From a virus: a stretch of DNA of 64,000 nucleotides. The number at the start of each line of letters is the position of its first letter. The first letter of the stretch is position 1. Made by a program: the position numbers and the translations under genes. Below, in pieces: positions 2,004 through 23,271 of this stretch. The stretch lies in IMG/VR virus record IMGVR_UViG_3300040770_000387. The stretch is one strand, 5' to 3'. The notes below the pieces were generated by a model. That model ran no database searches and had not been told where the DNA came from. It was given only the letters and a program-made list of their open reading frames with translations.

Positions 2004-4205
2004 ATGTACGCAAACATCCCCACTTATACTGCTGCTACAAAAGAATGGACCTACACCGCTTTTGAAACTAGAGCAGAATTAACCGATTACTTATGGACTC
2101 ATTTCAAAGAGCCCGGAAAATACAAGTTTGATGAAACATCAAAGATGTTTAACGAGCAAGCCCGACGCTACAATCGCGATCGGGTTTACTGCGTTGCACC
2201 GTATCGTTCTGCAGATTTTATTCACTACTGGAACACTGAAAAAGAAAAGTGTCGACAAGGAACCATTTTTATCGGTAAAAAGAACACTTGGTTTTTAAGC
2301 CGAGACTATTACATGTGGCTAAATTTTCTGCCTATCTACAACAAAGAGGTTGCCAAGTTTACCTTTCCTGAGGTTCGAGACGCGCAGTATCACATGTCGC
2401 TTTACGAAGAGATTGCAAAACACTCCTACAAGCACGCCGCGATACTTAAGAAAAGACAGATTGCATCTTCCTACTATCATGCAGGAAAAATGATCAACTT
2501 GTTTTACTTTGAGGAAGGGTCTATCAATAAAATGGCCGCTTCACTTAAAGATTACATCAACGAAAAAGGAACTTGGAGATTCTTAGAAGAATACCGAAAC
2601 TTCTTAAACACGCACACGGCTTGGTACAGACCTTGTACTCCAGACAAAGTATTGTCTTGGGAGCAAAAGATCGAAGTAACCATTAACGGTAAGAAAAGCG
2701 ACATCGGTCTCAAGTCTGTTATAATGGGTGCTGGTTTGGACAAAGATCCCACAAATGGTGTAGGGGGTCCCTGTACGTTTTTCTTTCACGAGGAGGCCGG
2801 TATTGCCCCCAGAATGAACGAAACAATAGAATACCTTATGCCTGCTATGAAATCCGGTATGACCTATACTGGAATGTTTGTTGCGGCGGGATCCGTAGGT
2901 AACTTAGATCAGTGTGAACCGCTCAAGGAAATGATCATGAATCCAGACTCGAAAGATGTTTTGGCCGTGGAAACTAACTTGATGGATGCAGAAGGACAGA
3001 TCGGAATGTGTGGGCTTTTTATTCCAGAACAATGGTCTATGATTCCATGTATCGATGAGTTTGGAAACTCTCTGGTAGAAGAAGCCTTGGAAATGATTCG
3101 TGTAGAACGTATTGACTGGAAGAAAAAACTAAGAGCTGACGATTACCAACTTCGTATTTCTCAGAAACCGACTAACATTGCTGAGGCTTTTGCACACCGA
3201 ACTAAGTCTAAATTTCCATTGGCACTTGTAACCCAACAAATGCGCCGCATTGAAGACAAGACGTACTTCATGGAATACGTTGACCTATCCGAGAAAGAAG
3301 ACGGTACTATTGAGATCAAACCTTCCAAACGCATTCCTATATTAGAATTCCCATTGTCTCCAAAGACAGTAGATAAAGAAGGCGTTGTAGTAATGTATGA
3401 GAGACCCTGTAAAAAACCAGGTTTTGGAATGTACTACGGATCAATTGACCCGGTTGCCGAAGGAAAAACAACTACATCAGACTCGCTCTGTTCTATATTT
3501 ATTTACAAGACTGCGCAGCAAGTAACTAAGCATCGTATTGATGGCACCGCAGAAACTATTATTGAACGCGATGGATTAGTGGCCTCTTGGTGTGGGCGTT
3601 TTGACGATTTAAACAAGACACACGAAAGATTAGAATACATCATACGGGCATACAACGCCTGGACTATTGTAGAAAATAACGTGAGTTTGTTTATTCAATA
3701 CATGATTTCCCGACGCATGCAAAAATACTTAGTACCAAAACATCAGATTCTTTTTCTTAAAGAGTTGAATTCCAACACTAACGTGTTTCAAGAATACGGC
3801 TGGAGAAACGTAGGTACGCTTTTTAAAACCAACATCATGTCGTACGGCATCCAGTTTCTGGAAGAAGAGTTGGATAAAGAAACTTTACCAGACGGGACAA
3901 TTACAAAAACTACTTTCGGCGTAGAGCGAATTCCAGACATTATGTTGCTTAAAGAAATGGCGGCATACCGCGATGGACTTAACGTCGATAGAATAGTAGC
4001 ATACTGCGCGCTTGTTGCTTTTGCTAAAGTCCAAGAGTCTAACCGAGGAGGTTACACCAAACGCGTTGAACATGAGGACGAAAGTTTGCTCAAGTCGAAT
4101 AAAAACGTTAAATTAAAAGTGAGCCCCTTTCGTCACATTGGTGCCACAAGCGGTAGTTCTTCTAACAGACGCCCACCAAGAAACCCATTCAAAAACATGC
4201 GTTAA
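2004..4205 (+). CDS. terL: Terminase large subunit
   Basis: Walker A-like AILKKRQIASSY, Walker B FFFHEEAG, coupling motif VAAGSVG, RNase H-like YGSIDPV and C-terminal DRIVAY. Length typical of crAss-like TerL. Confidence 0.95.
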   Translation: MYANIPTYTAATKEWTYTAFETRAELTDYLWTHFKEPGKYKFDETSKMFNEQARRYNRDRVYCVAPYRSADFIHYWNTEKEKCRQGTIFIGKKNTWFLSRDYYMWLNFLPIYNKEVAKFTFPEVRDAQYHMSLYEEIAKHSYKHAAILKKRQIASSYYHAGKMINLFYFEEGSINKMAASLKDYINEKGTWRFLEEYRNFLNTHTAWYRPCTPDKVLSWEQKIEVTINGKKSDIGLKSVIMGAGLDKDPTNGVGGPCTFFFHEEAGIAPRMNETIEYLMPAMKSGMTYTGMFVAAGSVGNLDQCEPLKEMIMNPDSKDVLAVETNLMDAEGQIGMCGLFIPEQWSMIPCIDEFGNSLVEEALEMIRVERIDWKKKLRADDYQLRISQKPTNIAEAFAHRTKSKFPLALVTQQMRRIEDKTYFMEYVDLSEKEDGTIEIKPSKRIPILEFPLSPKTVDKEGVVVMYERPCKKPGFGMYYGSIDPVAEGKTTTSDSLCSIFIYKTAQQVTKHRIDGTAETIIERDGLVASWCGRFDDLNKTHERLEYIIRAYNAWTIVENNVSLFIQYMISRRMQKYLVPKHQILFLKELNSNTNVFQEYGWRNVGTLFKTNIMSYGIQFLEEELDKETLPDGTITKTTFGVERIPDIMLLKEMAAYRDGLNVDRIVAYCALVAFAKVQESNRGGYTKRVEHEDESLLKSNKNVKLKVSPFRHIGATSGSSSNRRPPRNPFKNMR

Positions 4206-4232
4206 TCGCACCAAATCATAATAGCCTACACT

Positions 4233-6959
4233 ATGCCAAAATTAGTAAACGCATTACAGCTAAAAAAAGGGGTTCGTGCCGACCACAACAGGATGGGTAC
4301 CGTTACTCAACCAATACAATTTACACTTTCTGCTGACAAAGACGAAGAGTGGGCTGCCTGGAACATGGACTGGTTGGAAATGCAAGGAATGAAACAAGTG
4401 CGTCAAAATGCACCTTGGTTGCTAAAGAACTACAAGCTTGCCAACGGAATCATTGACAAGACAGATTACATTGTTGAAGAAAACAATGAGCATGCTGAAA
4501 TGCTAGACGTGTTGACCAAACAAGATGACTCCGCTATGGAGCTGCGTTTTTATCCTATTATTCCAAATGTAGTTAACGTTCTCACAAGTGAGTTTGCTAA
4601 ACGCAACGATAAGATAACTTATCGCGCGGTAGACGATCATACGTACAACGAGATGCTACATGAAAAGCAAGGAATGATCGAGCAGACGCTTATGGCCAAA
4701 GCAGAGCAAGACATGCAACAAACTATTGCATCAATGGGAATTGACATGCAGTCTGAAGAAGGCTCAAAACAAGCCCAGCAAATGATGAGTCCTGAAAACT
4801 TAAAAACGCTTCCTCAAATTGAGCAGTTCTTTAAAAAAGAATACCGCCCAATGATTGAGCAATGGGCCACGCATCAGCACAACGTAGACACAGAACGTTT
4901 CTCTATGAAAGAATTAGAGACCATAGGATTCAAAGACATGCTTACTGGAGATCGTGAGTTCTGGCATTTTAAAATGGAAGAAGACGATTATGACATTGAG
5001 CTGTGGAATCCGCTGCTTACTTTCTATCACAAATCACCAGGAGCACGTTATGTATCACAAGGAAACTTTGTTGGTAACTTCGAGATGCTTACCGTTGCTG
5101 ATGTCATTGACAAGCACGGACATAAAATGAACAAGGCGCAACTAGAATCATTACAAGAAATTTACCCTGTTACATCAACAGGTTATATTATACCAGGATT
5201 GCAAAACGACGGTTCGTTTTACGATGCCACGCGCTCACCAGAATGGAACCAACACGGGCCATCATTAGGAATGAGACAATTCAACTCGTTCCGGGACAAC
5301 TTAGAGTCTACCGGAGATGACATTATAGAAAGCATACTAAACGAAACAGAAGACTTCAAAGCTTTTGGAAACGCAAGTTTGCTTCGTGCTACTACTGCTT
5401 ATTGGAAAACACAACGTATGATCGGACACCTTACTAAAATAGGCAACGATGGTATTGCAATAGAGATGGTAATTGACGAACGGTACAAAGTAACCGATAA
5501 ACCGCAGTATGACAACACAGTTATGCCGCAAAAAAGTAGAGAAACGTTGCAGTTTGGTGAGCACATCGACTGGATCTGGATTAATCAGACTTGGGGTGGA
5601 CTTAAAATCGGACCCAACAGAGCTGGTTTTTCTAGCCATAACGACACAACAGGTTTTGCACCAATATACTTGGATCTTAAGCCAGTAAAATTTCAGTTTA
5701 AAGGAGACTTTACTCTGTATGGTTGTAAGCTTCCTGTAGAAGGAGCTATTTTCTCTAATAGAAATTCACGTTCTACTTCTCTGGTGGACAAGATGAAACC
5801 GTTTCAGATTGGATTCAACTTAGTTAACAATCAGATTGCCGACATTCTTGTCGATGAACTAGGTACTGTTATCTTGCTAGACCAAAATGCTTTACCTAAA
5901 CATTCTCAAGGAGAAGACTGGGGAAAAAACTCTTTTGCCAACGCCTATGTTGCCATGAAAGATTTTCAGATGTTGCCTCTTGACACATCTATTACCAATA
6001 CAGAAAACGCCACAAACTTCCAGCATTATCAAGTATTGAACTTGGAACAAACCAATCGACTAATGTCGCGCGTGCAGCTGGGTACTTATTTTAAATCACA
6101 GTGTTTTGAAACCATTGGTATTACTCCACAGCGTTTAGGCGCAGTTGGAGGACAAGAGACTGCTACCGGAGTAGAACAAGCTGTCAATCAAAGCTACACT
6201 CAAACCGAAATGTACTTCGTGCAACACTCCGAATATTTAATGCCAAGAGTACATCAGATGCGTACGGACTTAGCACAATACTATCATTCAAAAAAACCAA
6301 GCGTAAGATTGCAATACATGACCTCGTTAGAGGAGAATGCCTACTTTGAAATTAACGGTACAGAGCTCTTAGCAAGGGACTTAAATGTGTTTGCTTCCAC
6401 CAAAGTAAACAACAGACAAATCATTGAACAATTCAGATCTCTCGCCATGAGTAACAATACGGCAGGGGCTTCTATCTTTGATTTAGGTAATATTATTAAA
6501 GCAGACTCTCTTGCTGAGATTACCGTGGCTATGAAAACCATGGAAGAAAAAGCGCAAGCATCAGAAAAACAAAAGCAAGATGCATTAATCGAAGCAGAAA
6601 AAACCAAGCAAGAAGGAGAAACTACACGTCAAGAAGCAGAACTTCGCCATGAGGCAGAAGAAAAAGCGCTTGATAGAGAGAACAACCTTGAAGTAGCTAA
6701 AGTTCGTTCTGCAGGATTTACTGCAATGAAAGATATGGACGGAGACGGTGAAAATGATTATATCAAAACTCTGGAATACTTGGACAAGAAAAATGCAGCT
6801 AACGATGACCAAGCAATTGCTCGTCAAAGAGATGTTAACAACCAGGCAAACGAACAAATCAAAAACAATATCAAAAGAGAAGAGTTAGGTTCAAGAGAAC
6901 GTATCGCACAAAAACAGCTTCAAATTGCTAGCACAAACAAGAATAAGTATGACAAGTAA
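4233..6959 (+). CDS. Portal protein
   Basis: 908 aa directly after TerL; YPIIPNVVNVL and GITPQRLG motifs, coiled-coil C-terminus with D.DGDGEND. Crass-like portal size and position. Confidence 0.9.
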   Translation: MPKLVNALQLKKGVRADHNRMGTVTQPIQFTLSADKDEEWAAWNMDWLEMQGMKQVRQNAPWLLKNYKLANGIIDKTDYIVEENNEHAEMLDVLTKQDDSAMELRFYPIIPNVVNVLTSEFAKRNDKITYRAVDDHTYNEMLHEKQGMIEQTLMAKAEQDMQQTIASMGIDMQSEEGSKQAQQMMSPENLKTLPQIEQFFKKEYRPMIEQWATHQHNVDTERFSMKELETIGFKDMLTGDREFWHFKMEEDDYDIELWNPLLTFYHKSPGARYVSQGNFVGNFEMLTVADVIDKHGHKMNKAQLESLQEIYPVTSTGYIIPGLQNDGSFYDATRSPEWNQHGPSLGMRQFNSFRDNLESTGDDIIESILNETEDFKAFGNASLLRATTAYWKTQRMIGHLTKIGNDGIAIEMVIDERYKVTDKPQYDNTVMPQKSRETLQFGEHIDWIWINQTWGGLKIGPNRAGFSSHNDTTGFAPIYLDLKPVKFQFKGDFTLYGCKLPVEGAIFSNRNSRSTSLVDKMKPFQIGFNLVNNQIADILVDELGTVILLDQNALPKHSQGEDWGKNSFANAYVAMKDFQMLPLDTSITNTENATNFQHYQVLNLEQTNRLMSRVQLGTYFKSQCFETIGITPQRLGAVGGQETATGVEQAVNQSYTQTEMYFVQHSEYLMPRVHQMRTDLAQYYHSKKPSVRLQYMTSLEENAYFEINGTELLARDLNVFASTKVNNRQIIEQFRSLAMSNNTAGASIFDLGNIIKADSLAEITVAMKTMEEKAQASEKQKQDALIEAEKTKQEGETTRQEAELRHEAEEKALDRENNLEVAKVRSAGFTAMKDMDGDGENDYIKTLEYLDKKNAANDDQAIARQRDVNNQANEQIKNNIKREELGSRERIAQKQLQIASTNKNKYDK

Positions 6960-7041
6960 AAATAGGCAAGACGTAATAGCTATGTAGTACATAAAAGTTC
7001 TGGGAAACGGGTTCTTAACATAAATCTCTGAAGTTTATTTT

Positions 7042-7050
7042 GTAGATTAT
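7042..7050 (+). promoter_or_regulatory. Candidate late-promoter element (GTAGATTAT after a T-tract)
   Basis: Degenerate version of the GTAAATTCT motif seen at 13806, 23311 and 39070. Confidence 0.25.
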
Positions 7051-7052
7051 AT

Positions 7053-8345
7053 ATGAAGAAGAACCCTAACTTAAAACAGTACAGCATGGATCCAGATTTA
7101 ATAACAGGACAAACAAACGTGAGCAGTGTAACCTTAGAAAGTATTGACGATTTCCTTCCTATGCCGGGAGCAGATAGTGTCGTAACTTCTGATCAAGAAA
7201 AAGCTGCAAAACCAACTGTTTTCTCTAAACCACAAAGAACTAACTTGGACTTTTTAGATGAAGACGAGGAAGCTCCTGAAGGACAAACAAAACCAAATGC
7301 CGCAGACACTCTTGATGCTATAGCCGCTTTAGATGAGAATCTAGAAGAAGAAGCAGAACTAGGTTCAAAAGCAGGACGAAGAAAGACAGACAAAAACGGA
7401 TTAGTTGAGTTCTTGAAAAAAAGAATTGAGACAAACGAGATGTTTACTTTTGATGATTTTGATGATACCAAACAAAACTTAGATGAGTATTTAGGAGGTT
7501 TGAGTGAAAAAGACATCGAAGAGCTTTGGACAGCTAACGTAGACACCATAAAAAAAGACGTTGCTGCAAACACGCCAAAAGAATTCATGGAATCACTTCC
7601 TAAAGAATTACGCCAGGCTGCAGAGTACGTACAAAGTGGTGGTAAAGATATCAAAGGAATGTTACGCGCTTTATCTCAGGTAGAGGAAATAAGAAGCCTT
7701 GATCCTAGAAACGAAGACCATCAAGAAGTTATTGTTAGAAACTATCTTCACGCTTCTGGATTCGGAAACGGAGACCAGGAAATGATCGAAGAGCAAATCG
7801 AAGAGTGGGCGCAAGCCGGAACACTAGATAAAAAAGCAGGCCAGTTCAAACCAAAATTGGACAGCATGCAGGAAGAAATCATGCAAGGCAAGATGGCGCA
7901 ACAAGAGGCTCACAATCAGTCTCAGATCAAGAAGAAAGAAGAGTACATGAACAACATTTACGAAACTTTAAAACCTTCAGAGCTTAACGGAGTAAAGATC
8001 GATTCCAAACGTCAAAAGTTTTTATGGGATGAGCTTACAACAGTAAAGTACGAAAGCATGCAAGGGCGACCTACTAACTTGCTTGGTAAACTTTTAGAAG
8101 ATCACCAGTTTTCTGACAAGCCTAGATACGATCTTATAGCTGAAACACTATGGTTACTATCCGACCCAGACGATTACAAAGAAAACATTCGTCGTCAAGT
8201 TAAAAATGAAACAACACAAGAAACAGTTCGAAGTTTAAAAACAGAACAAAACCGCAGATTAGCCAGTACGGTAGACGAGACACCAGAAGAAGTTAAAACT
8301 GTAAACCGAAAACTGACTAAGACTCAGAACATTTTCAAACGATAA
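7053..8345 (+). CDS. Acidic scaffolding-like protein (crAss gene-77-like)
   Basis: Between portal and MCP; very acidic N-terminus and helical/coiled-coil body. Confidence 0.7.
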   Translation: MKKNPNLKQYSMDPDLITGQTNVSSVTLESIDDFLPMPGADSVVTSDQEKAAKPTVFSKPQRTNLDFLDEDEEAPEGQTKPNAADTLDAIAALDENLEEEAELGSKAGRRKTDKNGLVEFLKKRIETNEMFTFDDFDDTKQNLDEYLGGLSEKDIEELWTANVDTIKKDVAANTPKEFMESLPKELRQAAEYVQSGGKDIKGMLRALSQVEEIRSLDPRNEDHQEVIVRNYLHASGFGNGDQEMIEEQIEEWAQAGTLDKKAGQFKPKLDSMQEEIMQGKMAQQEAHNQSQIKKKEEYMNNIYETLKPSELNGVKIDSKRQKFLWDELTTVKYESMQGRPTNLLGKLLEDHQFSDKPRYDLIAETLWLLSDPDDYKENIRRQVKNETTQETVRSLKTEQNRRLASTVDETPEEVKTVNRKLTKTQNIFKR

Positions 8346-8381
8346 TCCCAAAACTATCATACAACTTAATCTTTAATTAAC

Positions 8382-10001
8382 ATGAGTACACCCGTATTAA
8401 ACAATGGATTGTTCTTGCGCGACACGAACTACAAGACGAGCTCGCACTTAGACTCTTACCATTTACAGAACATGCTCAAGTCAACTGACCCTATGGATTT
8501 AGGACCTGTTGATTTGTGGGCAATGACACAAAAGGTAGAGATGCCTTTGTATCAAATGGCTTCATTTGGTGGTAAAAACACTATAATGGTAGACAACGCA
8601 AGAGGAGAATACAAATGGCAAACGCCTATTGTAAACGATCTTCCTTACATCGTTGAAGACGTTGAACCAGGAGTTGCCATCTTAGGACAAGACGGAACAA
8701 ACTTCAAAATCAAATTGAACAAGCGTGCTTTTGGACATGGTGATATCATCACTTATGACAAGTACAAAGGAGCGGAACTTTATATCACAGCAGAAGACAT
8801 TCTTCCTGGTGGTGACGGTTTCATCTTTACGGTTCAGTTGGTAAACAACGACAACCAAAAATCATTGGACAAGAAATACTTGAAACCAGGTACTTCTTTC
8901 TTCAGAAAAACTTCTGCAAGAGGTGAATACGGAGAAAAGTTTTCTGATCTTGGAGAATTAAGCAATGGCTTCCGTGAGTACTACAACTATGTTGGTGGTG
9001 CTGAAGCACATGCTCACTACTCTGTATCTTCTCGTGCTGAGTTGATGTTAAAAGGTGGAATGAATGCGGATGGTACTGTACCAGTTACAGAGATCTGGAG
9101 ATCATTTGACAAGAACATCGACCCTTCTATTACGTCTATTGACGGGATGGTTGCGAAAATGGGTAAAGAGTACATCAAAAAATCTTATGACAATGGTAAC
9201 TTAAGCCGTTCGTTTGTTACGAACATGGAAGCTGCTCACTTGACTAAGATTGCTACGGATATCGAGACTTACTTAATGTGGGGACAAGGTGGACGTATCA
9301 AACAAGATGGACCAGATGACATCAGACTATCTGTTGGACTTTGGAATCAATTGGACAACTCTTACAAGAGAATCTATAATAAGTCAAGCTTTAGCTTAGA
9401 TTTGTTCCGTTCTGAAATTTTTAATTTCTACAACGGTAAAGTAGAGTTCAAAGGACCAGATCCTAAGAGACAGATCATCGTTCAAACTGGTATGGCTGGT
9501 ATGAAATTGGTTAACCATGCAATCAAGAAAGAAGCTATGAGTGCTGGTCTTGTTGTTCAAGCATCTGATATCGGAGCAATCTCTGGTAAAGCGATGGACT
9601 TGGATTTCGGATTCTCTTTCACTTCTTACACGATTCCGTTCTTGGCAAACGTAAAGTTTGTGTTGAACCCGGCTTTTGACAGCGTTCACACGAACGACAT
9701 CGAGAACCCAATCATCGACGGATTCCCATTGTCTTCTTACAACTTTATTGTGTTTGACATCACTGACAACACAAACGACAACATTTACTTGTTGAAGTTG
9801 AAATGGGACAACGAAATGAAATGGTTCTACCAAAACGGAACAATGGATTACATGGGTCGTTCTCAAGGATTCGCATCAAGCGGAAACTTCAACGGGTACA
9901 GAGTATTCATGACGCAAACAATGCCTTCTATCTGGGTTAAAGACCCAACTAAAGTGTTGAAAATTGTAATGAGAAATCCTATTACAGGAGGTTCATTCTA
10001 A
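8382..10001 (+). CDS. Major capsid protein
   Basis: 539 aa after the scaffold-like gene; EYKWQ, TYLMWGQGG..GLWNQL and C-terminal WVKDPTK..IVMRNP resemble crAss-like MCP. Confidence 0.9.
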   Translation: MSTPVLNNGLFLRDTNYKTSSHLDSYHLQNMLKSTDPMDLGPVDLWAMTQKVEMPLYQMASFGGKNTIMVDNARGEYKWQTPIVNDLPYIVEDVEPGVAILGQDGTNFKIKLNKRAFGHGDIITYDKYKGAELYITAEDILPGGDGFIFTVQLVNNDNQKSLDKKYLKPGTSFFRKTSARGEYGEKFSDLGELSNGFREYYNYVGGAEAHAHYSVSSRAELMLKGGMNADGTVPVTEIWRSFDKNIDPSITSIDGMVAKMGKEYIKKSYDNGNLSRSFVTNMEAAHLTKIATDIETYLMWGQGGRIKQDGPDDIRLSVGLWNQLDNSYKRIYNKSSFSLDLFRSEIFNFYNGKVEFKGPDPKRQIIVQTGMAGMKLVNHAIKKEAMSAGLVVQASDIGAISGKAMDLDFGFSFTSYTIPFLANVKFVLNPAFDSVHTNDIENPIIDGFPLSSYNFIVFDITDNTNDNIYLLKLKWDNEMKWFYQNGTMDYMGRSQGFASSGNFNGYRVFMTQTMPSIWVKDPTKVLKIVMRNPITGGSF

Positions 10002-13805: not shown

Positions 13806-13816
13806 GTAAATTCTTA
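13806..13816 (+). promoter_or_regulatory. Candidate late promoter motif GTAAATTCTTA
   Basis: Immediately after a terminator and about 30 nt before ATG 13849; the motif recurs at 23311 and 39070. Confidence 0.45.
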
Positions 13817-14561: not shown

Positions 14562-14782
14562 ACTTCTTAGAAAAGATAAACATCCTTATTGCGCAATCCG
14601 CATTTAGCATATACAAGAAAGTAAGGTATGGTATTAAGGATTGCAAACCAAAGATCGATGTGGCTCTTGTCGCAGACTTACGAATCCTACATCTTCGTTC
14701 CGTAGAAAGAATGGCTTGCAACCCTACGGCTGCAGAAGCTCTTCATTTGGACGAGGTTAATGAAAAAATAGCCACCCTATGA
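14558..14782 (+). CDS. Small hypothetical virion-associated protein (74 aa)
   Basis: ATGA overlaps on both sides; RYGIKDC motif. Confidence 0.7.
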   Translation: MNFLEKINILIAQSAFSIYKKVRYGIKDCKPKIDVALVADLRILHLRSVERMACNPTAAEALHLDEVNEKIATL

Positions 14783-17076
14783 GCACACCTATAAATTCAA
14801 GAACAACTGCAACAGCAGATTGCACTCCTATATCAAGCAACTGCGTCGTTTGGAGTGGTGCTAATATTCCATGTCTAGACATTTGTACAGGACAATCTAT
14901 CACTGTTGCTTTAGCGTCAATTGCAAAAAAACTTTGTGAAAGCACTACAGGAGTTATTGACGTTAGTACTTTGGAGTTTTCCTGTCTGGTAGAGAGTGCT
15001 TCTGACAACCCAACTACCCTACTAGAGACCATACAGCTTCTTATAAACAAACAATGTGTAGTAACACCTGTTACACCAGGAACAACACCGGTAACAACTG
15101 CTATTATTTTACCAGTCTGTTTACAATATTCTAACACAGAAGGAGATTTAGTCACTGTGCTACCACAAGACAAATTCAGCTTGCTGTTAGCCACAAAAGT
15201 ATGTTCGCTTATAGCAGACGGTATTGCAGAAGCAATTGCTTTTACAGCACTTGCTGTGCGTGTCAAAGCTTTAGAAGATGCTCCTGCGGCACCAGCTAGC
15301 GGTAATTTTAATGTTACTTCTCAATGTGCTAGTTCTGGAACACCAGGACAAAGTATTCCTATTGCTACAGCTTTTTATAATCTAGAAGCTTCTTTTTGTG
15401 AAATCGAAAGTTTAATTGGTAACTCTGCTGCCATAGCGCAGGCCATAGGAACTGAATGCGTAAATTTAGATAACACAGCGCAATTGTTTGACAGCTCTAA
15501 AACAATGAGCCAACTTGCAGGATGGGTATCTAACCCTGATAATCTTGCTCAAACAATAATTAATCTTTGGTTAACAATCTGCGACATGCGCGGTTCAGTA
15601 GTACAACTTGGAACACCAGGTCCTAAACTGTGCAGTCCTTTGGCTATATTAAATCTGACTATCAGCAAGCAAACGTATGACGGGGCAACTATTACTTGGG
15701 TGCCACCAAATACTGGAAGCGGAGAAGCAGTTTTAGAATATGATATTGAAATCCAAGAATGGGATGGTGTAGCTGTTATAGGAACTGTAGTTTACACAAA
15801 CACTGTAGCAAGCACCGTAAATTCTATTGTTTTAGACAATGGTGCTTTCCTTGGGTCAAGTAATTACAGAGTAAAAATTACAGCTAATTATGCTACTTGC
15901 GGCGACTCTGTTCCTGTAACAAAGGTTGGAAAAATGGCACTTGAAGCAGTAGCGTATTGTCCTGATTTTTCTGAATTTTCACCAGCACTTAGTCTTGCAA
16001 TAAATATGGTTAACACAGGAAGCGGCTATTATGAGTCTGCTCCTATTACGTATAACGGATCAGATCCGACAAGCGTTGTGCTGCGTTATTACGTAGTAGG
16101 ACAATCTAGTTATCCTGCGGCACAAGATGCGCCTTTGTACGATACAGCTATAAAAACAACTTTATTACTTGCGCCTGGAGAAGTGTTTACTTTAGGATAT
16201 TACGTTGGATCACAAGAAGGAGCATATCAAGTTACAGTTGATGCTAAATATTTTGAGTGTAATGCCCCGCCTACAACGCCGGCACCTACTACTACAATAG
16301 CACCTACTACTACAATAGCTGCTACAACTTCTGCACCGACAACAGCAGCACCGACAACAGCAGCACCGACAACAGTAGCAGCTACCACAGCTGCACCAAC
16401 AACAGCAGCACCAACAACAGTAGCTCCTACCACAGCAGCACCAACAACTTCTGCACCGACAACTGCTGCACCATCTACTACGTCATACACATTACAAAAT
16501 GGCGGACAAGCAGATGCAGTATATAACTACACTGATGCTAATGGTGTTTTTGTATCTAGCTTTTTAGGTGGATTTGAGAATCTTGTTATTTGTGCATTAA
16601 CAAATTCTGTTAGCGCAGAAGGAATTATTTCAGTAACTGACAATGGTCCATGTACTGCTCCAACAACGACTGCAGCTCCAACAACGACTGCACCGACGAC
16701 AGCTGCACCAACTACTACTGTAGCACCTGCTAGCACTCTTGCAATTGGTACTTCAGCACCTACTCAGGCAGGAGGTACTATAAACTTTACAGGAGGAACT
16801 CCTAATGAGTCTCTTAATCTAGCGATTACAATGACTTATTTTGATCCAGTTTATTTTGGCTCTTTAGATTTTGCACCTCCAATAAGCGCTCCTACAGTGT
16901 TTGCAAGTTATGATATAGTAGCTGGCTCAGTTCAATTAGACTCAAACGGAAACGCAAGCGCTAGTTATTATGGTAGCCCTGGAGATGCTGCATATACTGC
17001 AACAGTAAGAATAACCGGAAGAAGCTCTGGAGGTCCATTACCAGTAGATGACACTGTTAACATATCTAACTCATAA
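14779..17076 (+). CDS. Fibre/decoration protein with Cys-rich N-terminal anchor, FN3-like domain and mucin-like Pro/Thr/Ala repeats
   Basis: N-terminal SSNCVVWSGANIPCL module; FN3-like ATITWVPP...EYDIEIQ...YRVKITA; two PTTAA repeat tracts. Confidence 0.7.
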   Translation: MSTPINSRTTATADCTPISSNCVVWSGANIPCLDICTGQSITVALASIAKKLCESTTGVIDVSTLEFSCLVESASDNPTTLLETIQLLINKQCVVTPVTPGTTPVTTAIILPVCLQYSNTEGDLVTVLPQDKFSLLLATKVCSLIADGIAEAIAFTALAVRVKALEDAPAAPASGNFNVTSQCASSGTPGQSIPIATAFYNLEASFCEIESLIGNSAAIAQAIGTECVNLDNTAQLFDSSKTMSQLAGWVSNPDNLAQTIINLWLTICDMRGSVVQLGTPGPKLCSPLAILNLTISKQTYDGATITWVPPNTGSGEAVLEYDIEIQEWDGVAVIGTVVYTNTVASTVNSIVLDNGAFLGSSNYRVKITANYATCGDSVPVTKVGKMALEAVAYCPDFSEFSPALSLAINMVNTGSGYYESAPITYNGSDPTSVVLRYYVVGQSSYPAAQDAPLYDTAIKTTLLLAPGEVFTLGYYVGSQEGAYQVTVDAKYFECNAPPTTPAPTTTIAPTTTIAATTSAPTTAAPTTAAPTTVAATTAAPTTAAPTTVAPTTAAPTTSAPTTAAPSTTSYTLQNGGQADAVYNYTDANGVFVSSFLGGFENLVICALTNSVSAEGIISVTDNGPCTAPTTTAAPTTTAPTTAAPTTTVAPASTLAIGTSAPTQAGGTINFTGGTPNESLNLAITMTYFDPVYFGSLDFAPPISAPTVFASYDIVAGSVQLDSNGNASASYYGSPGDAAYTATVRITGRSSGGPLPVDDTVNISNS
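16267..16482 (+). repeat. Coding tandem repeat, about 15-bp unit (PTTAA), roughly 14 copies
   Basis: gcaccgacaacagca-type units encoding PTTAAPTTAAPTTVAATTAAP... Confidence 0.95.
16654..16728 (+). repeat. Second Pro/Thr/Ala coding repeat tract
   Basis: Encodes TAPTTTAAPTTTAPTTAAPTTTVAP. Confidence 0.9.
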
Positions 17077-17081
17077 TATAA

Positions 17082-20060
17082 ATGTATCCAAGTGAACAAT
17101 GTGATTCTTGCGATGATACACAACAAGCTCCTATCCCCCACGTTATTCCAAATTGCGTAGGGGAACGTTGCCCTGAAGTTATGGGTACTCGTTGTATTAG
17201 ATATGATGGGGTTGCCATTGTATCTATTGGAGTTGAAGCGGGTAATACTCTCAACGACATTTTATTGTTTCTAGCTGAAAGCACTAATCAAGTTCCTAAT
17301 CCTACTGATTGGAATGCTACTACAGGTCCAACACAACTTATCAATAAACCAACAAATGTATCTTCGTTTATAAATGACGCAGGCTACATTACTGTTGCTG
17401 ATATACCTGTGTTTCCAGTAATACCTGTGATACCTACTTTAGTGTCAGCTTTTGTTAATGATGCAGGCTATCTTACTTCTTTTCCCGCTCCGGTGGCACA
17501 GGAAGATAGCGACTGGGAAAGCGTGGTTTCTCCTACCCGAATTATAAACAAACCTTTAATACCTATAGTACCCACAAACGTATCGGATTTTACAAACGAT
17601 GCGGGGTATGTTACAGTCTTAACTCAAAAAGTGCCTAGTTTACAAGACGTTGTTCTGGTAAACAAGGTGGCCGATAGAGTTACGTTTTACCATGAGTTTT
17701 TTCATCAAGGTGTGTTTACACCTAGCAGTTCGTACTATGTAGCTTATGCTAAAGGCGTTGACTCTTTTTACGTCTATGGAAGTTTTACAGGGTATGACGG
17801 AGTAAGTGCAAAACACGTTGTTAAAATAAGAAACGATGGATATATAGACAGCACTTTTATTCCAATACAAACTAGCAATAATCTGGTGTACTTGTCTTTT
17901 GCTATATTAGAAGAACTAGGTACTAAAAAGTTACTAATGACAGGTTGGTTTACCAATATTAACGGTGTAAGTTTACCAAGAATAGCTAGGTTTAATACAG
18001 ATGGTAGTGTTGACAGCACGTTTAATGTAGGTTCTGCATTCAACGATTATACTACAGGAATATGCTACGATGTTACCAATACTAAAATATACGTTGGAGG
18101 TAGGTACTCTAGTTTTAACGGTGTATCTGCGCTTAGAATTGCAAGGTTAAATGTAGACGGCAGTCTTGATACTTCGTTTGTTACAGGTAGCGGGTTTACA
18201 AACGCAACGCTTACCATGCTTCCTGCTACTGATGGAGGTGTCTATGTTACAACTTACTCTGCTACTTATAACGGAGTGTCTTCACCAGGCTTAGTAAAAA
18301 TAGGGCCTACAGGTATAAGAGATGCTAATTTTAACATAGGTTCAGGAATTTTCCCAGTGGGAAGTTTTAACGAAGTTACTAGAGCAACGGACGGAAAAAT
18401 TTACTTACACGGACGTGTCACAAAGTACAATAACATTACAGTAGGTTATATTACAAAGCTGAACCTAGACGGAAGTATTGATGCTACGTTTTTGAGTGGT
18501 ACAGGATTTAACAATGTTGTAGATAGACTTTCGCTTGATGCAAATGGAAGACTTATCGTTATAGGACCGTTTACTTCTTACAACGGATTGACTTCTTACA
18601 AGGGTACAACTATTAGTGGGACCATTATTCTTAACACAGACGGTACAATATACAATGTGCCTCCTTCTGCAGCAGACAACTCTATAGGTCAGTTTATGCA
18701 GTTTTTAGAACAGTTAACAAACGGTTCGTATATTGGTTTTATTGATGGTAAGTTTACTCTTTTAAACAATCAGTTTGTAGGTCAAAGTACAAAAGAATTA
18801 ACTTTTGACGAAACAACAGGTATTGCTGAGTACAACTTGGAGCATTACGAACAAGCGGGTCCTTACGAGTTACTCAATAAAAAAACCACACAGTATTACA
18901 TCAACGATAGGTTAAAAGAACTTACCGTTATAGGAGAAGCACCTGCAGATGGAAAACAATACGCAAGAAAGAACACGGCATGGGTAGAAGTAATTCAAGC
19001 CACAGTACCAACGGTAGTGTCCGCTTTTACTAATGATGCCAACTATATTACTTTAGCTTCGGTACCGACAGTAGTATCTGCATTTACTAACGATTCTGGG
19101 TATATTACTTTAACAAGCATTGCAAATAAAGTTGATAAAGTAGCGGGGGAACGATTAATAAACGCTGCTGAAATTATTAAGTTAAGCAATCAATCAGGCG
19201 TAAATACAGGTGACCAAGATCTTACAGGATTATTCCATGCAAATAGAGCATTTTTAGATCTAGTTAGCGGAACTAATACCGGAGACCAAGACATAAGCGT
19301 TAAAGAGAACATATCAAACAAACAAAACAGCTTAGCTGTTGATGGCACAGGTATAAAATATGCTACAGTAGATGCTGTAAATGCAGGAATCACTAACAGT
19401 ATTTACTGGACTAAAACTACTGATAACATACAAAACAATAACATTGGGCATGTTCAAGTAAAACTTCTTGCAGCAAAACAATTTCAGACGTACAACTCGG
19501 CAGGAACACTTGTGGCTTATATAGACGAAATAGGTATTGGAAGATATGGTGCTGGAACTACCTACACTTCTTTTGGTCCTGCTTCCGCTAACATTCACTT
19601 AGCTATGGTAAGAAGCCAGGCAAATGCGGATTTTACTATAGGTAATCCTCAGATAACACAGCCATACAGCATTCGTTCTAGCAACTACTTTGGTACAAAC
19701 TATTGGGCAGGAAGTTCAGAAACTTCTGCGTCAGCTCTTGCCGAACATTCGTTTAACATAGGGAATGTTATTGGTGATGGCATCACTTCGGGAATTTTTA
19801 GGATTAGCAGAACAAGGCTACAGTCTAAAGTACCGATGAAATATGCGACAGACGTATCGACTTCTTACGATGATAGAACCTTAGTTGACAAATTTTATGT
19901 AGACAACAAACCTTTAAAAAATGATGTTGCTACAGCAAGTCTTACTAACGAAGGCAAACAACGATATTATGTATCTGGTAACAATTCTTATACAGATATT
20001 GTAATGCAAACTGGAGTAGGAATCTACGCCTGGGTTAATATAAAAACAAACACTTGGTAA
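17082..20060 (+). CDS. Tail fibre / receptor-binding protein with delta-60 (DUF5122-like) beta-propeller repeats
   Basis: Cys anchor at the N-terminus; five PTxVSxFxND(A/S)(G/N)Y repeats; RLNxDGSLDTSF-type repeats; EAPADGKQYARKNTAW; two NTGDQD motifs. Confidence 0.8.
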   Translation: MYPSEQCDSCDDTQQAPIPHVIPNCVGERCPEVMGTRCIRYDGVAIVSIGVEAGNTLNDILLFLAESTNQVPNPTDWNATTGPTQLINKPTNVSSFINDAGYITVADIPVFPVIPVIPTLVSAFVNDAGYLTSFPAPVAQEDSDWESVVSPTRIINKPLIPIVPTNVSDFTNDAGYVTVLTQKVPSLQDVVLVNKVADRVTFYHEFFHQGVFTPSSSYYVAYAKGVDSFYVYGSFTGYDGVSAKHVVKIRNDGYIDSTFIPIQTSNNLVYLSFAILEELGTKKLLMTGWFTNINGVSLPRIARFNTDGSVDSTFNVGSAFNDYTTGICYDVTNTKIYVGGRYSSFNGVSALRIARLNVDGSLDTSFVTGSGFTNATLTMLPATDGGVYVTTYSATYNGVSSPGLVKIGPTGIRDANFNIGSGIFPVGSFNEVTRATDGKIYLHGRVTKYNNITVGYITKLNLDGSIDATFLSGTGFNNVVDRLSLDANGRLIVIGPFTSYNGLTSYKGTTISGTIILNTDGTIYNVPPSAADNSIGQFMQFLEQLTNGSYIGFIDGKFTLLNNQFVGQSTKELTFDETTGIAEYNLEHYEQAGPYELLNKKTTQYYINDRLKELTVIGEAPADGKQYARKNTAWVEVIQATVPTVVSAFTNDANYITLASVPTVVSAFTNDSGYITLTSIANKVDKVAGERLINAAEIIKLSNQSGVNTGDQDLTGLFHANRAFLDLVSGTNTGDQDISVKENISNKQNSLAVDGTGIKYATVDAVNAGITNSIYWTKTTDNIQNNNIGHVQVKLLAAKQFQTYNSAGTLVAYIDEIGIGRYGAGTTYTSFGPASANIHLAMVRSQANADFTIGNPQITQPYSIRSSNYFGTNYWAGSSETSASALAEHSFNIGNVIGDGITSGIFRISRTRLQSKVPMKYATDVSTSYDDRTLVDKFYVDNKPLKNDVATASLTNEGKQRYYVSGNNSYTDIVMQTGVGIYAWVNIKTNTW
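19005..19118 (+). repeat. 57-bp coding tandem duplication (VPTVVSAFTND.xYITL)
   Basis: Two adjacent 19-codon copies with synonymous divergence. Confidence 0.85.
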
Positions 20061-20085
20061 TCACTAACACGTAAAACAAAATTTC

Positions 20086-20373
20086 ATGTATCCAAACGAC
20101 AACTGCGGTCCCACAACTACGATGGCACCTTACACTACTGCTGCGCCAGTATCTCCGCCTTCTTGTGTTGGAGAAAAATGTACTGAAGTACTTCAAACAG
20201 AATGCATTCGTTATAATGGCGCAACGCTTGTTGCACTTGGTATAACTTCAGCAGATAACTTAAACGAAATTCTTGTAAAGATCAACGCTGCTTTAGCAAC
20301 ACTTCTTCCTACACCAACTACAACTGTTGCACCAACAACAACTGTTGCTCCAACAACAACTATAGCGCCTTAA
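20086..20373 (+). CDS. Mini fibre-like protein: Cys anchor module flanked by Pro/Thr repeats
   Basis: CVGEKCTEVLQTECIRYNG is paralogous to the 17082 N-terminus; ends PTPTTTVAPTTTVAPTTTIAP. Confidence 0.8.
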   Translation: MYPNDNCGPTTTMAPYTTAAPVSPPSCVGEKCTEVLQTECIRYNGATLVALGITSADNLNEILVKINAALATLLPTPTTTVAPTTTVAPTTTIAP

Positions 20374-20375
20374 TT

Positions 20376-20861
20376 ATGTTAGGATCTCATTCTTCGTTTT
20401 TTAGCCAATCAAGCTTTGTTCTTTCTAAATGCAGAAACAAAGTCTCTCGTTTGTTAGATTTAAAAGGGTACGCCTATGTTGAAATCTTAGTTTACCTTAG
20501 AGCGTTTGATTTTTTTTGTAAATACCCAAAAGAATTTGATGGAGCAACTATTGTAAAAGACTTGGTAGATATTCCAGGTTTAGACATGGACGCTATGTTA
20601 CACGATTATCATTACGTGCAATACAATGTCAAAGCTAGTTTTGAACTTAAGTGGAAAGCAGACTGGATTTATGCTAAAGGCAACGAACGCAAAGGCAAAG
20701 GATCGTACAGTTCCTATAGCAGGTTTGTCATTTTATCTTTGATAAACTTCTTGTATGTTCCTTTTTCAAGAATACGTTCTGGAAAAATATCTAAAGCACA
20801 ACGCATTCAATTTTTGACAGACTACGACTTGCTAATAAAAAAACAACGTCGTGTAAATTAA
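20376..20861 (+). CDS. DUF1353-like protein
   Basis: FDGAT...AMLHDYHY...KADWIY matches the DGAS...HDYLY...AD signature; hydrophobic segment near the C-terminus. Confidence 0.65.
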   Translation: MLGSHSSFFSQSSFVLSKCRNKVSRLLDLKGYAYVEILVYLRAFDFFCKYPKEFDGATIVKDLVDIPGLDMDAMLHDYHYVQYNVKASFELKWKADWIYAKGNERKGKGSYSSYSRFVILSLINFLYVPFSRIRSGKISKAQRIQFLTDYDLLIKKQRRVN

Positions 20862-20870
20862 GCTATTATT

Positions 20871-21782
20871 ATGTATTACATCTGCGCACAACCTGCTGAG
20901 ACTTATTTCTACTGGCAAATTCGAGCTATGCTTTACAGCTTTCGCAAACAAAGCGTGCCTATGGATAAGGTACATGTAGTTTTAGGAATCAAAGGTTCCC
21001 TACCAGAGCAATACAAAGTACTACTAAAAGAATACCCTGCAGTCTTTTTTGCTACTTATCAAGATGATCGACCGCTTGGGGAGTATGCAGCAAGTGCTAA
21101 ACCTTACTTAATGCACAAACATTACAAGCAAAACAAGTGGCTTGAGAAAGAAGCTGTTTTTTATCATGACTGTGATATTGTTTTAACCAGGCCTTTAGAC
21201 TTTCATGATATGCTTGATGATGATATTCTGTATGTCTCAGATACTATTTCCTATCTCGGGTATGAGTATATCAAATCTAAAGGAGATCGTCCTTTAGAGA
21301 TCATGCTAGAGGTTGTTGGTATTTCTGAACAAACTGTAAAAGAAAACCAGATTCATTCTGGTGGCGCACAGTATCTCTTAAAAAGTGTAGATGTAGCTTT
21401 TTGGGCAAAAGTCTATACCGATTGCAACAAGCTTTTTCAAACGCTTTCGGCACACAACAGCAGTTTAGAGAAAACAGCAGAGTATCCAATACAAGTATGG
21501 TGCGCAGAAATGTGGGCTACATTGTGGAACCTTTGGGTTTACGGCCTTAAAACAAAAGTGCACCCAAGGTTAGAATTCTCTTGGGCTACATTTTCTACTG
21601 CAGATTATAACCGCTGCGCTATTTATCACAACGCAGGAGTAAACGATGGGCATTCCGGAATGTTTTACAAAGGAGCTCACACTAAAATATTGCCTTACGG
21701 GTTAGACTTACAATTAAATACTGACCTTGCTTCTCACAACTACTACCTTTTAGTTCAAGAAAGTAATACGGCACAAGTCTAA
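20871..21782 (+). CDS. GT-A glycosyltransferase, HPAT/SERGT1 (GT95/GT96)-like
   Basis: YFYWQ...YSF, AKPYL..HY, YHDCDIVLTRP (DxD), SGGAQYL, WCAEMWA and YHNAG follow the motif order of plant peptide O-glycosyltransferases. Confidence 0.75.
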   Translation: MYYICAQPAETYFYWQIRAMLYSFRKQSVPMDKVHVVLGIKGSLPEQYKVLLKEYPAVFFATYQDDRPLGEYAASAKPYLMHKHYKQNKWLEKEAVFYHDCDIVLTRPLDFHDMLDDDILYVSDTISYLGYEYIKSKGDRPLEIMLEVVGISEQTVKENQIHSGGAQYLLKSVDVAFWAKVYTDCNKLFQTLSAHNSSLEKTAEYPIQVWCAEMWATLWNLWVYGLKTKVHPRLEFSWATFSTADYNRCAIYHNAGVNDGHSGMFYKGAHTKILPYGLDLQLNTDLASHNYYLLVQESNTAQV

Positions 21783-21820: not shown

Positions 21821-21861
21821 GCTCTCGGGGTATTAACTCGAGAGCAGCTTGTGTTTTTTTT
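21821..21861 (+). terminator. Rho-independent terminator
   Basis: GCTCTCGGG/CTCGAGAGC stem (21821-21845) followed by a T8 tract; preceded by small hairpins AGACGAA/TTCGTCT and TCTGA/TCAGA. Confidence 0.7.
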
Positions 21862-21960: not shown

Positions 21961-23271
21961 ATGAGTAACATCGAGTCTGTTTATCATCACGTGAAACAAC
22001 ACGTTCACGCGAGTTTAAAAAGAAAGAGCAACCCTATACCACAGGCTGCAGCATTGGGAATCTCCCCTGACGAATACACAAAAATTAGAGATGGTATTCT
22101 GAAAGTAATGGGCGAGTCCGGCCCCGCAATGGACGGTATTATGCTTACTATGTTGCAGAATTCTCTTAGTGGAAAACCTTTAGGAGGATTTATGATAGAA
22201 GAAGAAGATGCTCAACTCACAGCATTTCATGAAAACCTAGATGCAAAAACTGGAAAAATAACAGGGTTAAGTTCTACTGAACCACGATCGCCCGAAGACA
22301 TTATCCGGATCTTGAAAATTGACACCACTGTCTGGAAACTATCTCAGTTCTGGAACAAAGAAAAAGGAAACAAATGGCTTGTCTCAGCCTTAGTTACAAG
22401 AGTTGCACAAACCCAAGTACAACAAGATAGTTTTCTTACCTCCCTTGAAAGCTACAAATTCCCACAATTCCCTCCCCTTACTCCCGTACAAATTTATCTT
22501 AACGAACACGTCCTTGAAAAAGTATGTGGCGTAATCTCTATGCAGGATTTGCATTTTGGAAAAACAGGTAACGATGACATGGGGAAAATTCTTAATGACG
22601 CCGTTCGGTATCTTATTGGAAAAGCGTACAGTAATTACCAACTAGAAAAGATTGTTTTAGTTATAGGGCCCGATACACTTAACATGGATACTTTTGACGG
22701 AACAACAACAAAGGGAACTCCAGTTGAAAATTCAAAGAGTCCTACTGATACGTATCTTATGGCATTCGAGGCTATCTGTGAAGCAGTAAACAACTTGCAA
22801 CAGTATTGTCAGAACCTTGAGATTGTATTCATCCCAGGTAATCACGACAGGCTTAGTTCATTTCATCTTTTGCACGCCGTTGCACAATCGTTTAAACTTT
22901 GCGAAAACATTATATTCAATACACACTATGCAGAACGCAAAGTGGTAGTATACGGAAAGAGTATGATCTGCATGGAACACGGAGATGTAAATTGCAAAAA
23001 TAACCCACTTGTTTATGCAGTGGAATTTCCAGAACAGTGGGGTATATGCACATACCGAATTCTTTACACTGGACATTACCACGGCAGAAAAACAAAAGAA
23101 GTCATTACAGAAAACGAAGAGCACGGATTCATCACACGAATTATTCCTGCTCTTACTTCAACTGACTACTATCATTACCATAACAAATACGTAGGGAACA
23201 AGCGTTCAGCATTGATGCATTTGCATGATGCCGAGAAAGGCTTGATCTCAGAATTTACGTATTCGTTGTAA
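21961..23271 (+). CDS. Calcineurin-like metallophosphoesterase with N-terminal HTH-like segment
   Basis: SMQDLHFG, PGNHD, MEHGD and TGHYH motifs; N-terminal QAAALGISPDEY. Confidence 0.85.
   Translation: MSNIESVYHHVKQHVHASLKRKSNPIPQAAALGISPDEYTKIRDGILKVMGESGPAMDGIMLTMLQNSLSGKPLGGFMIEEEDAQLTAFHENLDAKTGKITGLSSTEPRSPEDIIRILKIDTTVWKLSQFWNKEKGNKWLVSALVTRVAQTQVQQDSFLTSLESYKFPQFPPLTPVQIYLNEHVLEKVCGVISMQDLHFGKTGNDDMGKILNDAVRYLIGKAYSNYQLEKIVLVIGPDTLNMDTFDGTTTKGTPVENSKSPTDTYLMAFEAICEAVNNLQQYCQNLEIVFIPGNHDRLSSFHLLHAVAQSFKLCENIIFNTHYAERKVVVYGKSMICMEHGDVNCKNNPLVYAVEFPEQWGICTYRILYTGHYHGRKTKEVITENEEHGFITRIIPALTSTDYYHYHNKYVGNKRSALMHLHDAEKGLISEFTYSL

Follow-up and report, generated by a model that had tools for sequence, protein, structure and literature searches.

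Does a crAss-like phage coat its own fibres with sugars? This question is raised by a locus in a 64,000-nucleotide (nt) stretch of viral DNA (IMG/VR record IMGVR_UViG_3300040770_000387), which was analysed as a whole and is called the window hereafter. Five co-oriented genes, P0001 to P0005, follow each other with intergenic gaps of 2–25 nt (Table 1); the string opens with a fibre-like protein carrying linkers rich in Pro and Thr (PT linkers) and ends with a glycosyltransferase (GT), the gene for P0005 being set in a late structural operon. A first-pass annotation of this DNA had proposed that the phage glycosylates Thr residues of its own fibres, an idea that received computational support from the predicted fold of the enzyme, from gene adjacency and from co-presence across phages. 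As the sequences and a structural model suggest, P0005 probably O-glycosylates Thr residues of the Pro/Thr-rich linkers in virion proteins of its own phage.

Thr-rich tracts in P0001 and P0003

P0001 displays a Cys-containing N-terminal part and a weak fn3-like domain (E 0.0017, below threshold), followed by domains of ~60 amino acids (aa) that are joined by PT linkers. Two Thr-rich tracts flank one of these small ~60-aa domains and hold between them 18 Pro/Thr/Ala units of the TT(T) type; the first-pass annotation was thus right about the repeats, while its count of about 20 PTT-type units was slightly too high. The PTTTVA repeats that it had reported in P0003 were found as three PTTT(V/I)AP units in the C-terminal tail of the protein (aa 77–95, nt 20314–20370). 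On the DNA, the repeats of the tracts have periods of 15, 18 and 45 nt with 81–100% match (Tandem Repeats Finder). The Thr codons within the tracts are mixed (ACA, ACT, ACG and ACC), like those in the rest of the gene, which argues that the repeat is kept by selection on the protein. No further convincing Thr-rich tract was detected in the long plus-strand open reading frames (ORFs) of the 64-kb window, and P0002 is devoid of a Thr tract.

P0002 and P0003 have a Cys-rich N-terminal module in common (40% identity over 86 aa). Since the N-terminal module of P0003 resembles that of P0002, P0003 looks like a fibre attachment module bearing a PT tail alone. The pattern of the module, MYP..C...C.GE.C.E....C.RY.G, occurs in P0002 (17082–17340), in P0003 (20086–20310) and in a 243-aa protein of a sister crAss-like phage described below (L148:1098–1829), and the module probably serves all three as a domain for attachment to the virion, with varied distal parts.

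The predicted fold of P0005 is closest to plant GT95 and GT96 enzymes

P0005 matches the profile of phrog_4417 over its full length (E 1e-64, residues 1–298 against positions 1–291 of 293). Among 49 homologs the residues D100 and D102 of the DxD motif as well as H253 are invariant, and the motifs listed for this protein by the first-pass annotation, DxD included, are all present and invariant or nearly so within the family. A fold predicted by AlphaFold2 from the single sequence reached a predicted local distance difference test score (pLDDT) of 40 and was replaced by a model computed from the 49-sequence alignment, with a pLDDT of 94.7 and a predicted template modelling score (pTM) of 0.92. 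In this model the DxD is located between strands 95–98 and 103–105, as in GT95 and GT96 enzymes.

The nine best fold matches among the Swiss-Prot entries of the AlphaFold Database are all SGT1 (peptidyl-Ser alpha-galactosyltransferase, GT96) or HPAT (hydroxyproline O-arabinosyltransferase, GT95) proteins, with template modelling (TM) scores of 0.56–0.66 and E values of 3e-11 to 3e-8, while GT8 enzymes, e.g. galactinol synthases, rank behind them (TM 0.41–0.51). Among the clusters of the same database, three members of the own family (TM 0.9) are followed mostly by algal and protist proteins with an 'HPAT-like domain'. The neighbours in the PDB include UGGT, XXYLT1, LgtC, glycogenin and COLGALT1, several of which act on a protein or a protein-bound glycan or are of the GT8 type, and these PDB matches include no GT95 or GT96 structure. 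The best matches of the product of 20871..21782 are therefore GT96 and GT95 enzymes, and not enzymes that modify DNA or lipopolysaccharide (LPS).

At the level of sequence the parallel with GT95 and GT96 did not extend to membership. Because the HPAT profile of Pfam stays below threshold on P0005, we describe these two families, on the basis of the model, as its nearest known relatives by fold and P0005 not as a member of either. Glyco_transf_8 of Pfam matched neither P0005 nor any of the 49 homologs, and a search of PDB sequences with the profile of the family alignment returned only a chance match to NirC (E 1.1). P0005 starts at the first beta strand (residues 2–8), and the fold alignments with HPAT proteins begin at HPAT residue ~60. 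Inspection of the sequence, to which no dedicated transmembrane predictor was applied, revealed no N-terminal hydrophobic segment like the membrane anchor of GT95 and GT96 enzymes; without such an anchor, P0005 should act in the cytoplasm and not in the Golgi. Its GT8-, GT95- and GT96-like fold neighbours suggest that P0005 may be a retaining enzyme. The prediction of a complex between P0005 and P0003 scored 0.02, which counts neither way.

The GT gene usually lies directly downstream of Thr-rich tracts

We surveyed 80 IMG/VR loci that encode a GT of this family, dereplicated to 30 clusters, 27 of which had enough flank. A Thr-rich tract was present in a same-strand ORF at most 2 kb upstream of the GT in 21/27 clusters, while the controls gave 4/27 within 2 kb downstream and 7–10/27 farther upstream (Fisher p 1.3e-7). 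In 19 of the 22 tract-positive clusters, no more than 150 nt separated the end of the tract-bearing ORF from the start of the GT. Likewise, the gene directly upstream of the GT bears a Thr tract in all five deposited phages examined (Table 1). These tract-bearing neighbours, namely tail tubes, a crAss muzzle protein, fibres and the small LpeD protein, are mutually unrelated, and it is therefore the tract with which the GT is associated. The pairing, which had been framed for crAss-like phages, is present there and is not particular to them, being widespread among phages that infect Firmicutes and Bacteroidota.

Some of these loci deserve a description of their own. In Staphylococcus phage RQ1 (PV344601.1, L003:4229–4931) the tail protein stops right after seven Thr, and an overlapping ORF in another frame goes on with five (P/E/Q)T7-type units; this overlap could reflect a programmed frameshift within the Thr-coding repeat, yielding short and long tail-tube isoforms, or a sequencing error in the repeat. 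In another crAss-like phage (L061:2669–5977, and also L057) a GT of the family starts 24 nt downstream of the muzzle protein (Pfam crAss_MUZ), in which a long poly-Thr/Ser tract is present; additional tract-bearing ORFs are located shortly downstream. On the contigs L078, L033 and L050 (6906–8300), where no upstream Thr tract is found, two conserved genes, encoding proteins of ~175 and ~292 aa, come after the GT, an arrangement that may represent a different context or acceptor for the GT family.

Tract and GT are present and absent together in three lineages

The distribution of the GT was then compared with that of the tract within single lineages of candidate acceptors. Among 20 homologs of the phiFL1A-type tail protein, which align until the start of the poly-Thr tail, the GT adjoins 9/9 genes with a poly-Thr C-terminal tail and 0/11 without; among 31 homologs of the 1706-type tail protein it is found in 2/2 with the tail and 0/29 without; and in 8 viral contigs with P0001 homologs both the GT (0/8) and the PT repeats (0/8) are lacking, counts that include close relatives and stand for far fewer independent gain or loss events. 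The pattern of presence and absence repeats in three unrelated acceptor lineages. In the sister crAss-like phage, whose GT is 79% identical to P0005, the gene order is P0001-like, P0003-like, GT, with no P0004 in between; its P0001 homolog has longer (T5-7)VAP tracts, and its P0003 homolog, of 243 aa, lies directly upstream of the GT. The co-occurrence of GT and PT repeats that the first-pass annotation wished to see checked thus proved strong, directional and repeated in independent lineages. As the GT follows virion genes with Thr-rich tracts and, in the three lineages tested, is missing where the tracts are missing, these phages probably glycosylate their own particles.

Spread of the family and domain fusions

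The phrog_4417-type GT family comprises 1001 clusters at 50% identity (E up to 1e-3) and is encoded by 77 deposited genomes of phages from Lactobacillus, Enterococcus, Staphylococcus, Lactococcus, Clostridium and Chryseobacterium. The hosts of its carriers span Firmicutes and Bacteroidota. Many members of the family (P0134, P0138, P0141, P0145, P0147 and P0196 in the representative library) are fusions of 500–1160 aa with a GT6, GT2, GT32-like (Gly_transf_sug) or methyltransferase domain. The P0005-type domain is usually N-terminal in these fusions and the GT6, GT2 or GT32-like domains come after it, an order as would be expected of an initiating enzyme succeeded by glycan extenders. To judge from their domain content, the fusions suggest multi-step, possibly methylated, glycans.

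A proposed mechanism and its alternatives

Altogether, these data lead to the following model. P0005 would be a soluble, DxD metal-dependent GT-A enzyme of the cytoplasm, made late alongside the fibres, that moves a sugar from a host nucleotide-sugar to the Thr hydroxyls of PT or poly-Thr tracts before or during assembly. In the phage of the window the acceptors would be both linkers of P0001 and the C-terminal tail of P0003; synthetic PTTTVAPTTTVAP and poly-Thr peptides would be candidate substrates of P0005. The product would be stiff, extended, protease-resistant, mucin-like spacers or whiskers on the tail, coated with glycan, and in relatives the fused GT6, GT2 or GT32-like domains would extend the glycan. 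The tracts, the layout of the operon, the predicted fold and the genomic coupling of enzyme and tracts are observed, whereas we infer that the tracts are the acceptor, that Thr is the modified residue and that the enzyme is a retaining one, as well as the choice of sugar and the advantage gained by the phage. Thr is preferred to hydroxyproline (Hyp) because many of the partner tracts are pure poly-Thr without Pro. This corrects the Pro/Thr signature put forward by the first-pass annotation: Thr, not Pro, is the common denominator of the partner tracts, and a Hyp-type chemistry is unlikely for the P0005 family.

Several points weigh against Thr O-glycosylation by P0005. The HPAT profile of Pfam (PF23452) reaches 16.9 bits on P0005 against a cut-off of 23.9 (E 0.0043, residues 8–241), and only 4 of the 49 homologs match it at E up to 1, the best at E 3.4e-4. 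Between 5 and 8 of the 30 GT clusters have no Thr tract in the fetched flanks, and the kinship among the sequences in the presence/absence comparison counts here as well. Many proteins have Thr/Pro-rich linkers without glycosylation. Finally, there is no experimental evidence of a glycan on any phage that carries the GT family.

The clusters without a nearby tract would also suit a GT whose acceptor is not a protein but, for instance, polysaccharide of the host envelope, teichoic acid, LPS or phage DNA, and that travels with variable fibre cassettes which happen to hold Thr-rich linkers. Phage GTs for DNA modification and for serotype conversion are well known, and LPS enzymes (LgtC, RfaJ-type) are among the GT-A/GT8-like fold matches of P0005. 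We nevertheless regard this explanation as improbable. Within each of two lineages of tail-tube proteins, the sequences agree until the last ~25 residues, and the poly-Thr tail and the GT alone differ, so that hitch-hiking of a cassette is hard to sustain; besides, the GT gene resides in structural operons and not in lysogeny or replication modules, and the best fold neighbours of P0005 are peptide O-glycosyltransferases. The possibility that P0005 transfers arabinose to DNA, as proposed for an enzyme of RB69, was considered and rejected, as the RB69 candidate is an unrelated GT-B enzyme and the P0005-type gene is found in structural operons.

The tracts could also be glycosylated with the first sugar added by the host, the phage GT extending or altering the glycan, or they could merely recruit a GT that modifies other residues. 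UGGT and XXYLT1, two PDB neighbours of P0005, do extend glycans already present on proteins, and the fusions with further GT domains indicate that multi-step glycans exist in the family. However, the P0005-type domain usually comes first in these fusions with the extenders after it, most carriers, including the phage of the window, encode a single GT near the tracts, and a host priming system shared across Firmicutes and Bacteroidota is unlikely; we accordingly give little weight to a host-primed or recruiting role. It is very improbable, and already disfavoured, that the pairing is an artefact of statistics or annotation, low-complexity Thr tracts being frequent in the tail genes of phages and the GT an accessory gene with no link to them. 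The tracts found 2–6 kb upstream in 7–10/27 loci do reveal a raised background in tail modules, but the enrichment is directional and immediate (19/22 tract-bearing ORFs within 150 nt), presence and absence agree without exception in three lineages, and the 64-kb window is without any other real tract.

With Thr O-glycosylation by P0005 as the preferred reading, a broader one can be formulated, to which we give even chances: the phrog_4417 family may be a widespread, hitherto undescribed phage system of mucin-type Thr O-glycosylation, in which a single soluble enzyme, a prokaryotic-virus branch of GT95/GT96, reads poly-Thr or Pro/Thr tags on tail tubes, fibres, muzzle proteins and whiskers, and in which the pair of tag and enzyme is a portable module for coating virions, exchanged among crAss-like lineages and the phages of Firmicutes and Bacteroidota.

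The gene string and its surroundings

The coordinates of the gene string, together with the tract-bearing neighbours of the GT in the deposited phages, are collected in Table 1.

Table 1. Features of the fibre/GT gene string in the window and tract-bearing proteins next to family GTs in deposited phages
Feature	Position	Strand	Basis or remark
Motif GTAAATTCTTA, exact intergenic copy	13806..13816	+	Possible start signal of a late unit with the fibre genes and the GT
P0001, 765 aa, fibre-like virion protein, proposed acceptor	14779..17076	+	ORF translation, Thr tracts
PT tract 1 of P0001	aa 496-569 / 16264..16485	+	14 TT(T) units, 30 Thr, 14 Pro; proposed O-glycosylation sites
PT tract 2 of P0001	aa 627-650 / 16657..16728	+	4 units, 11 Thr
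P0002, 992 aa, fibre or receptor-binding-like	17082..20060	+	DUF5122 repeats, fibritin-C-like segment
P0003, 95 aa, proposed small glycosylated whisker, second acceptor	20086..20373	+	N-terminal module and PT tail
P0004, 161 aa, viral-only family	20376..20861	+	Without Pfam or PHROG family match; viral hypothetical clusters in Atlas
P0005, 303 aa, soluble GT-A glycosyltransferase, proposed peptidyl-Thr O-glycosyltransferase	20871..21782	+	phrog_4417, DxD, predicted fold
Terminator-like hairpin, closes the gene string	21821..21845	+	9-bp stem, 6 G-C pairs, 7-nt loop
Enterococcus phiFL1A major tail protein	C-terminus		~20 Thr/Ser residues; adjoins GT
Lactococcus phage 1706 major structural protein	C-terminus		Ten terminal Thr; adjoins GT
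Lactobacillus phage LpeD orf68, small, annotated 'glycoprotein'			Thr/Ser-rich VAP-type repeats; adjoins GT
Staphylococcus phage RQ1 major tail protein	C-terminus and overlapping ORF		Terminal Thr run and, in an overlapping ORF, many (PT7VA) units; adjoins GT
Chryseobacterium phage MA9V-3 upstream gene	Internal		Poly-Thr linker; adjoins GT

The window belongs to a distant crAss-like phage, with terminase, portal and major head protein at 2004–10001. Its portal shows 32% identity to that of the Leptolyngbya phage Lbo-JY46 and 22–26% to those of gut crAss-like phages, and the Pfam families CrAss_Ring_1 and CrAss_Ring_2 are detected on sister contigs with the same gene order as in the window. Exact copies of GTAAATTCTTA occur only at 13806, 23311 and 39070, each shortly upstream of a gene start, and with at most one mismatch 13 matches were counted against 5.25 expected; the motif may act as a promoter. 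At the other end, the GT-A protein is the last of the string before a hairpin, as the first-pass annotation had it with a terminator at 21821; the T tail of this hairpin is weak, and such sites are not above shuffled expectation in the region. A 178-nt gap then leads to an exonuclease gene beyond the fibre/GT string. This DNA repair exonuclease (21961–23271, phrog_704, 1.9e-46) has the fibre/GT operon on one side and the ring and muzzle genes on the other, which is an odd site for a nucleic-acid enzyme; it is conserved in the sister phage.

In P0002 we identified five DUF5122 beta-propeller repeats (8.8e-40) and a Fibritin_C-like segment (2.8e-4). The protein also contains repeated (V/I)S.F.ND.(G/N)Y(I/L/V)T motifs (19005–19112 and several sites in 17350–17700), including a 57-nt tandem repeat, which look like a fibre-shaft repeat. 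Searched by sequence against solved structures, P0002 gave no meaningful match and P0001 just a sub-threshold match to a titin Ig domain (E 0.05). P0004 has a confident Atlas model (pTM 0.80), with weak look-alikes that include DUF1353 and phospholipase-A2-like clusters. It was examined as an obligate partner of the GT and rejected as such, since the sister phage has no such gene separating its acceptor genes from the GT; P0004 is thus probably not an obligate partner.

Novelty and implications

The first-pass annotation knew of no description of this pairing, and none was found in the literature searched; the full-text search, with most subscription journals outside its coverage, returned no publication that deals with the GT family or with HPAT-like enzymes of phages. 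New here are the pairing in a crAss-like phage, with L061 as a second crAss-like case, the PT-type interdomain linkers in place of terminal poly-Thr tags and, as read from the sequence of P0003, an apparently minimal protein made of an attachment module plus a PT tail.

If the proposal is true, many phages that infect lactic acid bacteria, enterococci, staphylococci and Bacteroidota, and many crAss-like phages, would have virions coated with sugar. This would bear on phage stability, adsorption, adherence to mucus, immune recognition in phage therapy and the reading of cryo-electron microscopy maps and proteomics. Glyco-engineering would gain a compact pair of tag and enzyme that works in the cytoplasm, and two plant-specific CAZy families, without a solved structure among the fold matches, would gain a relative from a virus of prokaryotes. 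Cultivable carriers of the GT exist, namely Lactococcus phage 1706 (orf13/orf14), Enterococcus phiFL1A (gp50/gp51), Lactobacillus phage LpeD (orf68/orf69), Staphylococcus phage RQ1 and Chryseobacterium phage MA9V-3.

Comparison with known systems

HPAT and SGT1 enzymes attach the first sugar to Ser or Hyp residues of Pro-rich repetitive proteins, Araf being placed on Hyp and Gal on Ser of extensin-type repeats, and it is the same kind of job that we propose for P0005. The GT96 enzymes SGT1/SERGT1 and the GT95 enzymes HPAT1-3, RDN1/2, PLENTY and NOD3 (PF23452) have a GT-A fold, a DxD and an order of motifs as in P0005. The alignment of P0005 with the HPAT profile is weak yet nearly full length, and sequence identity to the plant and algal enzymes amounts to 13–16%. 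In contrast to P0005, these enzymes possess an N-terminal membrane anchor and stem of ~60 residues, and their acceptor is Hyp or Ser, while that of P0005 is probably Thr. The second tier of fold matches (TM 0.41–0.51) consists of the GT8-type LgtC, glycogenin, galactinol synthase and XXYLT1 and of the catalytic domain of UGGT (GT24). The metal site of GT8 enzymes, a DxD with a downstream His, resembles D100, D102 and H253 of P0005, but GT8 yields no Pfam match to P0005 and its structural similarity is below that of GT95 and GT96.

On the acceptor side, the 'PT-box' linkers of bacterial cellulases and the mucins of animals are instances in which O-glycosylation stiffens Pro/Thr-rich linkers and protects them from proteases. 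P0001 likewise has small domains that are split by Pro/Thr linkers. The cellulase and mucin systems, however, use membrane PMT-type or GT27 transferases that are unrelated to P0005 and work outside the cytoplasm or in the Golgi.

Glycosylation of phage virions by experiment was found, in the literature searched, only for mycobacteriophages. As cited in PMC12619734 and PMC12363180, it has been shown for Che8 (gp108-110), Corndog and Myrna (Freeman et al. 2023, Cell Host Microbe), where it shields the particles from antibodies; in a manner like that proposed for P0005, GTs encoded by these phages act in the cytoplasm on capsid and tail-tube proteins of the same phage. The tail tube is a target in mycobacteriophages, and likewise the tail-tube C-terminus is the candidate acceptor in several relatives of the P0005 family. 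The enzymes and the acceptors differ. Gp108-110 of Che8 are of the GT2 plus methyltransferase, GT2 and GT25 types, and kinship of P0005 to them was rejected (hhalign probability 0.1–0.3%). Poly-Thr is absent from the capsid and tail-tube proteins of Che8, whose ends read ...TGS and ...DGS, and no mycobacteriophage is among the 77 phage records with the GT family. The computational evidence thus supports a proposed form of phage virion glycosylation in which both the enzyme family and the acceptor tag differ from those of the mycobacteriophages.

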